Shown one piece after another: positions 43,401-46,732 of a stretch of DNA of 64,000 bases. The notes beneath the pieces are model-generated. The model ran no database searches. It saw nothing but the letters and a program-made list of their open reading frames with translations, and was not told the origin of the DNA. Position 1 is the first letter of the stretch; the number at the start of each line of letters is the position of its first letter. Origin of the DNA: Thermostichus sp. DRC_bins_24 (GTDB lineage: Bacteria; Cyanobacteriota; Cyanobacteriia; Thermostichales; Thermostichaceae); assembly GCA_039794845.1 (NCBI GenBank), contig JAUQVK010000037.1, forward strand, positions 28,048 through 92,047, read 5' to 3'. The translations under genes were made by a program, and so were the position numbers.

Positions 43401-43466
43401 AAGAAAGGGGGGTAGAGCAAAATTTAAGATGAGTGTAGCCGCTTGGGGATCCCCGAAGTACCCACC

Positions 43467-44285
43467 ATGACCACCGCTTCACTACCCCGTCGCCGTTTCC
43501 GCTTTTCCCTGCAAAGCACCCTGCCCGCCGTGTTGGGGGTGCTGATGTGTGGAGGGATCGTGATCCGGATGCAGTTGCCGATGCTGGAGCGGATTGACCT
43601 GGAGGCGCTGGAAAACGCCGAAGCCCGTAAAGAGCGCAACATCGCTTTGGCCAATGCTTTGGGATGGCTGGGCTACCGCAACTTGGGGGCCTCTTGGCTA
43701 TGGCTGGAGCTGATCCAATACTACGGCGATGGCCTCGCACGCACCCTGACCGGCTATGGCTTGGCCTTCGACTACTTCGACCACATGACCCGGCTGGATC
43801 CCAATTTTTTCTTGGGCTATCGGCTGGCTAGCTTGGTGTTGGCCTACCGGGCCGGGCAACCGGAGCAAGCCATTGAAATCATAGATCGCGGCCTTCAGCA
43901 CTTCACGCCCGAAACCAACCCTGGCGCATGGCGGCTCTACGTGGATCGGGCCCTGCTGAACTTTCTCTTTTTGGGCGATGCGGAAGCCGGTCGAAACGAC
44001 TACTATCAAGCCGCCGCTTGGCGCGAGCAAGTGGGCCTGCCCGGAGATGATTTTCGCCAACTGGGGGACAGCATCGCCCGTAGCCCCCTCAGTCGTCGGG
44101 CCCAGTTTGATGTTTGGATGAGCGTGTTCAACTCCACCACCGACCGGGATACCCGCGTCTTCGTCCTGGAGCAACTGGCCCGACTGGGTACCGTCCTGCG
44201 AACCCTGCCCACTGGCGAGGTCGAGATTCTGGCTCCACCTCTGCCAGAATTCCCGGATGAGGAGCCCTACCTTTTACGCCCATGA
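43467..44285 (+). CDS. Membrane-anchored helical-repeat hypothetical protein
   Basis: N-term TM; LGYRNL.A.WLWL..IQYYGD..GYG..YF..DP.F. Confidence 0.6.
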   Translation: MTTASLPRRRFRFSLQSTLPAVLGVLMCGGIVIRMQLPMLERIDLEALENAEARKERNIALANALGWLGYRNLGASWLWLELIQYYGDGLARTLTGYGLAFDYFDHMTRLDPNFFLGYRLASLVLAYRAGQPEQAIEIIDRGLQHFTPETNPGAWRLYVDRALLNFLFLGDAEAGRNDYYQAAAWREQVGLPGDDFRQLGDSIARSPLSRRAQFDVWMSVFNSTTDRDTRVFVLEQLARLGTVLRTLPTGEVEILAPPLPEFPDEEPYLLRP

Positions 44286-44584
44286 GCGCGTCCGTGAAGA
44301 TTGCGCCTTAGGAGTATGACGCTGGCGAACATTGTAAGCTAAACTCTAACCCAAATCATCCCAAGCTCACGAAGCGATTCCTTCAAGAGTCGCGTCACCT
44401 TTCGTCAAGAAAGTTTACTTTTTTGCACGAAAAAGTGCTAGTCCCAATACCCTCACAGGGGGGACTTATGGCTAGCCTCGTTGCAAGCTCTGATGACGCT
44501 CTGGGTTTCCGCTTTGTTCCCGAAGTTCCCCGACTTCTTATTTCTTAACTTTTGTTCTTGACCTGCACGATAGGAGTGACCCCG

Positions 44585-45562
44585 ATGACCTCAAGAACTT
44601 CCCTCTTGGTGACTGTGGCTGCCCTTGCGAGCGCTGGGTTGACCTTTCCGGCGGCGGCGCAATCTTCCGGTACAGCGCGAGTGCGGTCGGTGGTGGATGG
44701 GGATACCTTCTGGGCGGATTTGAACGGTAGGCCGACCCGTTTTCGTCTTTCCTATGTGGATGCGCCAGAGCTGACCCAAGGGCGGTGGGGGCGGCTGTCT
44801 CAAGAGGCGTTACAAAACCTGATCCCGACGGGATCCCTGGTGCAGGTGGATACCCTCTACGTCACCCCCGAAGGGCTACACATTGCCCAGGTGTACAACT
44901 CCGACGGCCTGGTGAATTTAGAGATGTTGCGGCAGGGGCATGCGGTGGTTTACGAGCGGTTCTTACACGGGGCCAACCGTCAGCGCTACCTAGAAGCCCA
45001 AGAGGAGGCCCAGGCGGCGCGGCTGGGCTTTTGGCAGCAACGCAACCCGGTGATGCCTTGGGAGTTTCGGGAAGCGGGGATGCAAGCCTCTGCCTTTGCG
45101 GGGGCGAATGTTTTGGATGGCTCCTTCATTCGAGAAAACCCGACGGCGGCTGCGGGTGTGGGCATTGCCACGGTGGTGGTGATGGTGGGCCTGAGCAAGT
45201 TGCTCTGGAAAAAGCCCAGTCAAAAGAAGGTTAGCCTGCGGCAGATGGAACGGGATCTGAAACAGCTGCAGCGCAGCCTCACCACAACGCTGGCCAGCCG
45301 CAAACAACTGGAACGGCAGTACGACGAAATTCTGCAAAAGGCGGAGGACTGGTTTATCCGAGCGGAAAAGGCCACCCAACACAATAACGACGACATGGCC
45401 CGAGATGCCTTGGTGCAACGCAACCAACACATGAGCGCGGCAGAGGCAGTGCGCAAATCCCTAGATGAAGTGGAAGAACAAATGATGACGATTCGGGAGG
45501 GCATTTCCCGCCTGGAGAGTCAAATCTCCATGACCAAGCTGGAACGGGAGATGAACAACTAG
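44585..45562 (+). CDS. Thermonuclease (SNase)-TM-PspA/IM30-like fusion protein
   Basis: Signal peptide; VVDGDT, RLSYVDAPE, VNLEMLRQGHA, A..ARLGFW..PWEFR; TM helix; C-term LASRKQLE..W..RAEKA..DDMARDAL..LESQIS. Confidence 0.75.
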   Translation: MTSRTSLLVTVAALASAGLTFPAAAQSSGTARVRSVVDGDTFWADLNGRPTRFRLSYVDAPELTQGRWGRLSQEALQNLIPTGSLVQVDTLYVTPEGLHIAQVYNSDGLVNLEMLRQGHAVVYERFLHGANRQRYLEAQEEAQAARLGFWQQRNPVMPWEFREAGMQASAFAGANVLDGSFIRENPTAAAGVGIATVVVMVGLSKLLWKKPSQKKVSLRQMERDLKQLQRSLTTTLASRKQLERQYDEILQKAEDWFIRAEKATQHNNDDMARDALVQRNQHMSAAEAVRKSLDEVEEQMMTIREGISRLESQISMTKLEREMNN

Positions 45563-45634
45563 CGGGTTGCCGGTCGGTAGAAGGGATCGGCACAGTAAAA
45601 AAGAGGTAAGCCTCCGAGACGGAGTAAGTTGCCC

Positions 45635-46732
45635 ATGGAGTGGCTGCAAGGGCTGGAGATCGACAAAGGTTGGCCCCAAGTGGGGGTAATCACGCTGGTG
45701 GGGGTGTTGGCCTTTGCCTTGGGGCGAGGGATCCCGAAATGGCTGAAGCCGACGGTGAAGCGACTGGCCAGCCCGGATGTGGCGGAGGTGTACGAGCGCA
45801 CGGTGGATCCTTATGCGGGGTTGATCGGGTTGGTGGTGACCCTGTTGCTGGCAGAATCGGCTTTGCTGGTGTTGCCGCGGGGCTTGTGGTTGCACCTGAC
45901 AGAGCTGGGGGTAAGCCTAGCCCTGACGGTGGCCTTGGCCTGGTTATTAACCCGGCTGGTGAAGGGGTTTGCCGATGTTTATCTGCGGGATACGGCCCTG
46001 AAGGGAGGGCGCAAGGTTAACAGCGAATTGCTGATCGTGGGGCGGATCAGTGCCAACCTGGCGATCGGCTTTTTGGCGCTGCTGCTTTTTGCCCAGAGCC
46101 ATCAAATCAATGTGGTGGGGTTGTTTGCCAGCTTAGGAATCGGGGGGCTGGCGGTGGCCTTTGCCGCCCAAAAAACTCTGGAGCAACTGCTGGGGGGCAT
46201 TGTCATCTATGTAGACCGGCCTTTTGTGGTGGATGACTACATTGGTTTGCCGGATGGCACCTTTGGCCGGGTGGAGTCGATTGGGTTGCGCTCGACCCGC
46301 ATTCGCACCTCCGGAAAAGGCACTTTGGTGATCGTGCCCAACAGCGCCCTAACCCAGGTGAGCATTGAGAACTTCACCGGGGCAAAAAAGGTGATGTCCC
46401 TGATTTATCTAACGTTTCAGCGCCTGTTGCCCGAGGAGGAAAAAGCCCTAATCCGGCAGGTGATTTTGGAAAGCACCCGCGATATTTTCGGCATTGACTC
46501 TCGCAACACCGACCTCACCTTTCGGGAGCTGGCAGCCCAGGGATCCCAAGCGGCCCGCAGCCAGGCCCAATTGACCTTTTTTATTCTCGGTTCCGGCGAG
46601 GTATCCATGGATCTGCGCCGACAACTGCTGGATTTGGCCAGCGAGACGATCACCCAAAAGCTGAAGGAATACGGAATCGCCTTCGAGATTCAGGATCCCA
46701 CCATCTATGTAGATGCTCCGATCACCATATAG
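45635..46732 (+). CDS. MscS-family mechanosensitive channel
   Basis: ASLGIGGLAVAFAAQ, DRPF, VESIGLRSTRIR, IVPNS. Confidence 0.9.
   Translation: MEWLQGLEIDKGWPQVGVITLVGVLAFALGRGIPKWLKPTVKRLASPDVAEVYERTVDPYAGLIGLVVTLLLAESALLVLPRGLWLHLTELGVSLALTVALAWLLTRLVKGFADVYLRDTALKGGRKVNSELLIVGRISANLAIGFLALLLFAQSHQINVVGLFASLGIGGLAVAFAAQKTLEQLLGGIVIYVDRPFVVDDYIGLPDGTFGRVESIGLRSTRIRTSGKGTLVIVPNSALTQVSIENFTGAKKVMSLIYLTFQRLLPEEEKALIRQVILESTRDIFGIDSRNTDLTFRELAAQGSQAARSQAQLTFFILGSGEVSMDLRRQLLDLASETITQKLKEYGIAFEIQDPTIYVDAPITI

Follow-up and report, generated by a model that had tools for sequence, protein, structure and literature searches.

Why should a secreted, nuclease-like domain be tied across a membrane to part of an ESCRT-III-type protein? 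This question is raised by a single gene in a 64,000-nucleotide stretch of DNA from the hot-spring cyanobacterium Thermostichus sp. DRC_bins_24 (assembly GCA_039794845.1, contig JAUQVK010000037.1, positions 28,048 to 92,047 of the forward strand); the whole of this stretch is called the window throughout. The gene encodes a 325-residue protein that joins a staphylococcal nuclease (SNase) fold, by way of one transmembrane (TM) helix, to a helical hairpin of the PspA/Vipp1 family. An earlier note, made from the letters alone, had proposed that the protein couples nucleic-acid binding or cleavage outside the cytoplasm to the recruitment of Vipp1/PspA polymers inside it. Our analysis finds here a PspA/Vipp1-family hairpin in an apparently unprecedented, conserved, membrane-spanning architecture. 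We describe the hairpin and its anchor, the ectodomain and the family in turn, and weigh what such a protein might do.

The Vipp1/PspA-like hairpin and its membrane anchor

Pfam, hydropathy, AlphaFold2 and Foldseek bear out the arrangement that had been read from the translation, namely a signal peptide, an SNase domain, a single TM helix with KKPSQKK directly after it, and a PspA-like C-terminus. The parts of the gene, in window positions, are:

44585..45562, + strand: coding sequence of the 325-residue fusion protein (P0001), from the ATG at 44585 to the TAG at 45560-45562, stop codon included
44573..44577, + strand: Shine-Dalgarno-like AGGAG, 8 nt 5' of the ATG, read from the sequence
44585..44662, + strand: residues 1-26, signal peptide of the Sec type with PAAAQ at its end (AxAQ in the family consensus), from the hydrophobic segment 5-26 and alignments; the cleavage is inferred
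44663..45079, + strand: residues 27-165, SNase-fold ectodomain with D38, D40, R54, D59 and E62 kept and the R87 equivalent replaced by Leu, from Pfam, Foldseek, VIA, residue mapping and dN/dS (the ratio of nonsynonymous to synonymous substitution rates)
44870..44878, + strand: codons E96-G97-L98, in place of Y85-G86-R87 of staphylococcal nuclease, from a HMMER alignment to thermonuclease chains of the PDB
45080..45142, + strand: residues 166-186, variable linker of low confidence (predicted local distance difference test, pLDDT, <50 for residues 163-194), its length differing across the alignment
45143..45208, + strand: residues 187-208, single TM helix (hydropathy 185-209; AlphaFold2 helix 190-206; G193 nearly invariant)
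45209..45229, + strand: residues 209-215, KKPSQKK, positive-inside patch, read from the translation
45236..45379, + strand: residues 218-265, helix equivalent to α1 of Vipp1/PspA, from AlphaFold2 and the ungapped Vipp1 alignment
45389..45556, + strand: residues 269-324, helix equivalent to α2 of Vipp1/PspA, from AlphaFold2 and the Pfam and Vipp1 alignments

Hydropathy analysis found two hydrophobic segments only, at about residues 5-26 and 185-209, and the translated signal peptide has no twin-Arg motif. In the AlphaFold2 model, built from an 18-row family alignment, the SNase fold (pLDDT >90) is followed by a disordered linker and a helix over residues 190-206; then comes a pair of long helices (218-265 and 269-324, pLDDT 89-96) with a 3-residue turn between them. 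By the positive-inside rule, which is established knowledge, the KKPSQKK patch after the TM helix places the SNase domain outside the cytoplasm and the hairpin inside it (N-out/C-in). On this prediction the protein is a type-I single-pass membrane protein whose ectodomain lies on the periplasmic or thylakoid-lumen side.

The earlier note had allowed that the C-terminus might fail to match PspA_IM30 and prove to be a generic coiled coil. Instead, residues 218-322 match this family (PF04012) with 49.9 bits against a cut-off of 33.9, covering positions 32-136 of the 220-position profile, and residues 201-325 taken alone score 53.9 bits. As the next-best Pfam family for the protein (E=0.009) falls under its own cut-off, the segment does not behave as a generic coiled coil at the level of sequence. 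A phmmer search against the PDB placed residues 215-323 on residues 30-138 of Nostoc Vipp1 (6zvr) with zero gaps (E 1.8e-10), and BLASTP against the Vipp1 encoded in the same genome gave an ungapped alignment of 107 residues (Vipp1 residues 32-138) with 34% identity and 69% similarity (E 2e-20); identity of the hairpin to the other PspA-like protein of the genome was 21%. On these alignments the C-terminus is a true relative of the PspA/Vipp1 hairpin.

The claim of an α1-α3 hairpin was therefore right as to homology and too generous as to extent, since only α1 and α2 are present (Vipp1 32-138). The α1-α2 hairpin lies in the register of the family, as seen in the AlphaFold2 model, the ungapped Vipp1 alignments and a structural match to 4WHE at Z 12.7. 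The protein stops at the equivalent of about Vipp1 residue 140, without the α3 elbow, α4, α5 or α6, so the complete PF04012 domain (α0-α5, profile about 1-220) is not found in it, nor are the α5 domain-swap helix and the C-terminal extension (α6) of Vipp1. The N-terminal amphipathic α0 is absent too, the segment before α1 being the hydrophobic TM helix 187-208 and then KKPSQKK. The PspA equivalog cut-offs are missed (53.4 against 242.95 bits for TIGR02977; 38.4 against 336 bits for NF007974).

The family falls into two paralog types, A, to which the window's protein belongs and which forms one clade (support 100/99), and B. We compared, column by column, a family consensus (at least 60% of 30 rows) with a Vipp1 consensus (at least 80% of 10 rows). 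The shared columns cluster round the hairpin tip, at Vipp1 Q54, K55, W71, R74, A75, A78, L86, A87, R88, A90, L91, K94, A101, L108 and V115, with two more, L40 and L43, near the hairpin base; the remaining Vipp1-invariant residues of the open end (D35-A46, L125-K136) are not retained. Both paralog types, although only 35% identical to each other in the hairpin, retain the Vipp1-specific tip motif W..RA..A ... LAR.AL.

Structural comparison is less telling. In VIA-align the hairpin matches E. coli PspA 1-144 (4WHE) with Z 12.7 over 116 residues (chain 18-140) and Vipp1 with Z 11.3; Snf7, CHMP1B and Shrub give Z 10.5-11.6, and unrelated hairpins reach Z 11-12.8. With such scores for unrelated hairpins the fold by itself is no proof of kinship, and the ESCRT-III relationship is founded on sequence homology of the hairpin to PspA/Vipp1. 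A complex prediction for the genome's own Vipp1 (residues 1-220, 10-row alignment) with the hairpin (residues 210-325) scored 0.18 against a mark of 0.32; it had no controls and is used neither for nor against binding.

The SNase-fold ectodomain

The SNase family PF00565 matches residues 52-152 along its whole profile (1-107 of 107) with 48.8 bits against a cut-off of 21. Foldseek relates the ectodomain to staphylococcal nuclease (E 1e-9, TM-score 0.82), and VIA-align gives Z 16.3-16.4 against SNase and SND1 structures. To map the catalytic residues of S. aureus nuclease onto the protein we used HMMER alignments to PDB chains together with a family alignment of 31 rows. The window's protein keeps the equivalents of D19, D21, R35, D40 and E43; the residues of the Ca2+ site (D21, D40, and T41 via its backbone) together with R35 and E43 align to its D40, D59, A60, R54 and E62. 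At the next motif G86 is retained as G97, Y85 has become E96 and R87 has become L98, and further on Y113 is replaced by Glu and Y115 by Phe. The second catalytic Arg is thus lost, as had been noticed from the sequence.

Losses from the catalytic set recur through the family. Type A (9 rows) keeps D21, R35, D40 and E43 throughout and D19 in all rows except one, which has Asn, and R87 is replaced by Leu in 9/9. In type B (22 rows) R35, D40 and E43 are gone, and 10 of the 22 retain the Arg equivalent to R87. The full catalytic set is found in 0/31 family members, and the ectodomains of all 31 are net acidic (-1 to -12). A conserved Arg or Lys that might compensate was sought in the type-A alignment and none was found; the GRWGR loop that follows E62 is not conserved in P0026 and P0027.

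A stand-alone secreted SNase of the same genome (L078, 154 aa) keeps DGDT, R..DAPE (as RLACIDAPE) and DRYGR, and since canonical motifs are recovered there, the catalytic losses in the fusion are not alignment artefacts. The gene for this canonical enzyme (L078 1393-1857, +, contig C40 of the window's genome, G000) lies directly 3' of an open reading frame for a 399-residue P-loop-ATPase-like protein and 5' of a coiled-coil frame, and may sit on a mobile element.

Given that type B, the more widespread of the two, is without R35, D40 and E43, we conclude from the alignments that nuclease activity is not the common function of the family. Canonical nucleic-acid binding by the ectodomain appears unlikely, and the window's own ectodomain, nuclease-like in fold, is probably no longer a working nuclease. 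The proposed binding or cleavage of nucleic acid outside the cytoplasm is accordingly not upheld, with no complete catalytic set in the family, Glu at Y85 and Y113, and acidic ectodomains throughout. The suggested sensing of phage DNA fares no better: PADLOC returned a domain-level SNase match only, to PDLC01096 ('SNc+LTD') over the SNase part (profile 21-181 of 279, E 5e-11), and the two flanking genes were unmatched.

By dN/dS the SNase part is the most strongly constrained segment of the fusion protein, which makes it a clean example of an SNase fold under strong selection after loss of its catalytic set. Because a constellation resembling a Ca2+/phosphate site is under very strong constraint in type A, ligand binding or weak catalysis by this type deserves a slight chance.

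Occurrence, selection and genomic setting

A word-indexed search gave 24 matches, 16 of them full-length proteins of 325 aa with 77-92% identity and both Pfam domains. These 16 orthologues come from Thermostichus (order Thermostichales) and hot-spring 'Synechococcus', and are named 'PspA/IM30 family protein' or 'micrococcal nuclease'. A HMMER search of 1.84 billion cluster representatives produced 9917 matches at E<=0.001; the best 150 of these contain 15 further clusters (50% identity) that span both halves at 28-43% identity, whose named members are cyanobacterial 'thermonuclease family', 'endonuclease YncB', 'hypothetical' or 'PspA/IM30 family' proteins. Three other fusion candidates (P0057, P0106 and P0151) were discarded on finding that their SNase domains are in tandem and that they are not fusions. 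A word-indexed search with the TM helix and hairpin (residues 186-325) recovered only 18 close orthologues or fragments and is uninformative on other TM-anchored hairpins, and the ESM Atlas gave no usable match.

Profile searches of whole genomes of the order covered 23 from the same family as the window's genome; 21 of them have at least one intact full-length copy, and seven have two. In the remaining two the gene is in pieces on two contigs (G420) or frameshifted (G423); the type-A orthologue of the latter (L076 866-1788, +) is read in two overlapping frames with an early end, and is a pseudogene or an assembly error. The sister family has the fusion in one genome of seven. There (G402, contig C24, L070) two copies stand in tandem, the second (250 aa) ending about 54 residues past the TM helix. 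In a phylum sample of 401 genomes, scored for five candidates per genome, both-domain matches were limited to two genomes, that of the window and a congener (0/399 others), and the next-best match (E 6e-32) covers the SNase part only. Over the genomes and databases searched, the fusion is confined to Thermostichales.

Two single-contig genomes (G272 and G419) carry the intact fusion, which excludes an assembly chimera. The concern that homologues would prove to have SNase and PspA parts as separate genes was not realised, and the fusion is genuine and conserved. Over the 10 pairs formed by five orthologues, the SNase part has a dN/dS of 0.02-0.13, the TM helix one of 0.00-0.21 and the hairpin one of 0.06-0.22; every part of the fusion except the signal peptide is under purifying selection.

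Four PspA-family genes are present in the window's genome. Besides the one described here they are a complete Vipp1 (L001, 253 aa, profile 1-215 plus a tail), an atypical PspA-like gene and a further fusion:

L004 904-1800, + strand, contig C97 of the window's genome: second fusion paralog, 298 aa, same architecture, both Pfam domains over their cut-offs

This second paralog (PspA 44.9 bits) reads GGDD and VDLVYVRPP at the catalytic motifs, with R35 replaced by Asp, D40 by Arg and E43 by Ile, and keeps the R87 equivalent. The atypical PspA-like protein (L003 1327-2136, +, contig C33) matches profile positions 27-216 with 48 bits and has a hydrophobic, Trp-rich N-terminus. Two groups of Vipp1/PspA in Thermostichales are described in the accessible text of Tan et al. 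2024 (PMC11304991), and this protein may equal the 'group II' PspA of that paper.

One genome (G416) has a complete gene (L075 995-1531, +) whose 178-residue product consists of the TM helix and the hairpin (PF04012, 41.4 bits) behind a short N-terminal tail, with no SNase domain and no signal peptide; this natural variant suggests that TM helix and hairpin form the core module. P0087 and short matches in G414 and G415 also looked like SNase-less forms and were set aside as fragments at contig ends. A 372-residue Vipp1-like protein in another genome (G002; L033 1159-2277, -) has a Gly/Ala-rich hydrophobic insert of about 120 residues between α0 and α1, with similarly long frames in G394 and G246, and such an insert may be another way to embed Vipp1 in a membrane.

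Two neighbours of the fusion gene in the window deserve mention:

45629-46732, + strand: MscS-family channel gene (Pfam MS_channel_2nd, 61.1 bits), 66 nt 3' of the fusion gene
43443-44285, + strand: upstream gene of 280 aa with an N-terminal hydrophobic segment and weak TPR-like matches under their cut-offs

The MscS gene is where the earlier note had placed it, downstream on the same strand. It adjoins the fusion in only four genomes (G000, G421, G427 and G428), and is not found beside the orthologue in G272, G419, G424, G425 or G426, nor beside the more distantly related type-A genes of G408 and G417. As the adjacency is not conserved, we treat the channel as a coincidental neighbour, and the idea of a functional link finds no support. 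A scan of 44200-45750 gave 0 promoter-like sites, and no terminator-like site on the + strand between the fusion and MscS genes. The 280-residue gene is syntenic with the fusion in 7/7 congeneric loci checked and in none beyond the genus. Across 22 loci surveyed, no protease, anti-sigma or regulator gene was found near the fusion.

The architecture had been thought undescribed, and we found no paper that describes an SNase-TM-PspA hairpin protein in the full-text literature on PspA/Vipp1/IM30 with SNase-type nucleases or on Thermostichales thylakoids and Vipp1. No SNase fusion is listed in the fusion section of a survey of phage-shock-protein (PSP) systems (PMC11237479), and the main text and one supplement of that survey have 0 occurrences of 'nuclease'; the word has 0 occurrences in the phyletic PSP preprint, and the available portion of PMC13174344 does not mention the architecture. 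It is auto-annotated in databases, yet apparently undescribed. The homologue filter given in the accessible text of PMC11304991 requires a length >200 aa and a bit score >250. Against Pfam and the Vipp1 of its own genome the PspA part of the fusion reaches no more than 50-70 bits, so a filter of that type would probably drop it, and one or two genes may be missing from the PspA-family count for these genomes.

Proposed role and comparison with known systems

The Vipp1 polymer offers a frame in which to place the hairpin. As described in the available part of Liu et al. 2021 (PMC8281802), Vipp1 hairpins (residues 24-142) pack side by side, α0 lines the membrane-facing lumen of the assembly, and the hairpin tip receives α5 of neighbouring subunits (Interfaces 1 and 3). 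The domain swap of α5 onto a neighbour's tip is the polymer-forming contact, and the binding of α5N to the tip in the rung below (Interface 3) was validated by an L86C-L193C cross-link; truncations without α5/6 were among the constructs tested there. The fusion keeps the receiving residues of the tip and has neither α4 nor α5 to donate, a combination that would make it acceptor-only.

Our preferred reading, held tentatively and at a little short of even chances, is that of an acceptor-only ESCRT-III subunit integral to the membrane: by docking into Vipp1 polymers the protein would tether, seed or end them, its ectodomain serving as a binding or sensing module. The TM helix would stand in for the membrane-binding α0, directly N-terminal to α1, and the hairpin would stack beside Vipp1 hairpins and accept Vipp1 α5 at its tip. 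In this way the membrane where the fusion resides would become the site at which a Vipp1 polymer is tethered, seeded or ended. The ectodomain would be non-nucleolytic and would set where or when docking occurs, and that of the window's type may still bind a Ca2+ or phosphate ligand. The presence of a full-length 253-aa Vipp1 in the genome speaks for this reading, as do the age of the fusion and its maintenance under selection, and recruitment of Vipp1 by the hairpin, as the earlier note had it, would be a reasonable expectation. In its most specific form, that of a family restricted to Thermostichales in which the TM helix replaces α0, the hairpin receives Vipp1 α5, polymers are pinned or nucleated at defined sites, and a dead SNase domain sets where and when, the proposal is possible but doubtful.

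Several observations weigh against docking. Unrelated chemoreceptors, IpaB and SMC coiled coils score Z 11-12.8 against the hairpin, and we infer its binding to Vipp1 from sequence. The conserved tip residues (small, aliphatic, W and R) could serve tight packing of the hairpin and not the binding of α5. No cluster of neighbouring genes is common across genera in the 22 loci, mostly covering +/-6 kb, and docking on Vipp1 is therefore without operon support. Full-length copies were not found in 6/7 sister-family genomes, so the fusion is not needed for thylakoids as such, and within the genus one genome (G423) has a frameshifted copy. Finally, type A holds D19/D21/R35/D40/E43 among members that are 33-43% identical, and the SNase part has the lowest dN/dS; this constraint fits a retained ligand-binding or residual catalytic role, which the docking proposal leaves vague.

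Some of these points would suit a self-contained scaffold or receptor, in which the hairpin only dimerises or oligomerises the protein, by hairpin packing or as an antiparallel coiled coil, and Vipp1 is not engaged; the protein would then be an extracytoplasmic binding protein or a signalling receptor with a cytoplasmic structural stalk. Such helical hairpins are common as oligomerisation modules, with many unrelated ones at similar Z, the open-end Vipp1-invariant residues are not kept, and no partner gene is conserved. Against this stand the Vipp1 register, gap-free over 107-109 residues, and the tip motif, kept in both deeply diverged paralog types where a plain stalk would be expected to drift, and we think a mere scaffold unlikely. 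The logic of accepting and not donating α5 would serve equally for a polymer cap or negative regulator that limits the growth of Vipp1 or PspA polymers or sequesters Vipp1 at the membrane, with the ectodomain perhaps controlling release. The present data fit seeding and capping alike, and no protease, anti-sigma or regulator gene lies nearby; we rate a cap as rather unlikely.

A working membrane-tethered nuclease, the type-A ectodomain cutting or binding DNA or RNA in the periplasm or outside the cell for nucleotide scavenging, DNA uptake or defence and the hairpin anchoring or clustering it, would draw on the Ca2+ ligands and R35/E43 equivalents present in 9/9 type-A members, on the dN/dS of 0.02-0.13, and on an SNase hidden Markov model matched end to end. 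Loss of R87, however, cuts SNase activity by orders of magnitude in the classic mutagenesis literature, and this residue is Leu in 9/9 type-A members. The changes of Y85 and Y113 to Glu bring negative charge into the nucleotide pocket of a net acidic domain, type A has no conserved Arg or Lys to compensate, the more widespread type B is without R35, D40 and E43, and the PADLOC match is at the level of the domain. A nuclease is for these reasons distinctly improbable. The frameshifted copy of G423 and the split copy of G420 would be the traces of a chimeric assembly or a decaying gene; with intact copies in G272 and G419, 16 close orthologue clusters from several sources, about 15 further clusters at 50% identity and dN/dS far below 1, an artefact has a negligible probability.

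How Vipp1/PspA polymers reach particular membranes or sites is a question in both thylakoid biogenesis and membrane repair, and we know of no dedicated Vipp1 membrane receptor in cyanobacteria. The fusion is a concrete candidate for a Vipp1 receptor, seed or cap, and, as a hairpin-only form that occurs naturally, it could be used to dissect how ESCRT-III assembles. If docking on Vipp1 is true, it would be a natural transmembrane link from an outside compartment to an ESCRT-III assembly in a bacterium. Thermostichales are presented as the earliest thylakoid-bearing lineage in the accessible parts of PMC11304991 and PMC13174344; because the fusion is confined to this order, it could, on the acceptor-only reading, be a survivor of the first membrane targeting of Vipp1. 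Its significance for the ESCRT-III/Vipp1 and thylakoid-evolution fields is tempered by its narrow distribution.

Among known systems, the ectodomain resembles the staphylococcal/micrococcal nuclease family, and the stand-alone SNase of its own genome, in fold, signal peptide, DGDT, R..DAPE and the PWEFR-type C-terminal motif. It differs from them in the replacement of R87 by Leu and of Y85 and Y113 by Glu, in being acidic and not basic, and in its connection, through a TM helix, with a cytoplasmic domain. Its best structural matches are SN domains of Tudor-SN/SND1 (4qmg, Z 16.4; 3bdl, Z 16.2), in which an SNase fold that lacks the canonical active site serves for binding. Those proteins are eukaryotic, cytoplasmic or nuclear, and carry the domain in tandem, and at 15-17% identity the likeness is one of fold only.

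On the side of the hairpin, the survey PMC11237479 states in its fusion section that >98% of PspA homologues are single-domain, and names fusions with NlpC/P60 and PspAA, plus Snf7-RND. Compared through that section alone, the PspA_IM30-NlpC/P60 fusion of a cyanobacterium and the Snf7-RND transporter of Actinobacteria are likewise rare (<2%), and Snf7-RND is also membrane-embedded, whereas the partner domains and lineages differ from those found here. With Vipp1/IM30 and PspA (PF04012) the fusion shares a homologous α1-α2 hairpin in the same register with its tip motif. Unlike them it has a TM helix in place of α0, is without α2/3 beyond about residue 140, α4, α5 and the C-terminal extension, and is an integral-membrane protein with an extracytoplasmic domain; they are soluble or peripheral. 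E. coli PspA(1-144) (PDB 4WHE) covers the same segment of the fold; it is an engineered fragment, whereas the hairpin-only form of the fusion is natural and conserved. The hairpin region of E. coli PspA also binds the regulator PspF, and to our knowledge cyanobacteria have no regulator of the PspF type. Membrane anchors of PspA-family proteins include LiaI for LiaH in Bacillus and PspB/PspC for PspA in E. coli. The role proposed here is like theirs, that of an integral protein fixing a PspA-family polymer to the membrane. There is no sequence kinship between them, and those anchors have no PspA-like domain, whereas the fusion would join the polymer by its own hairpin.

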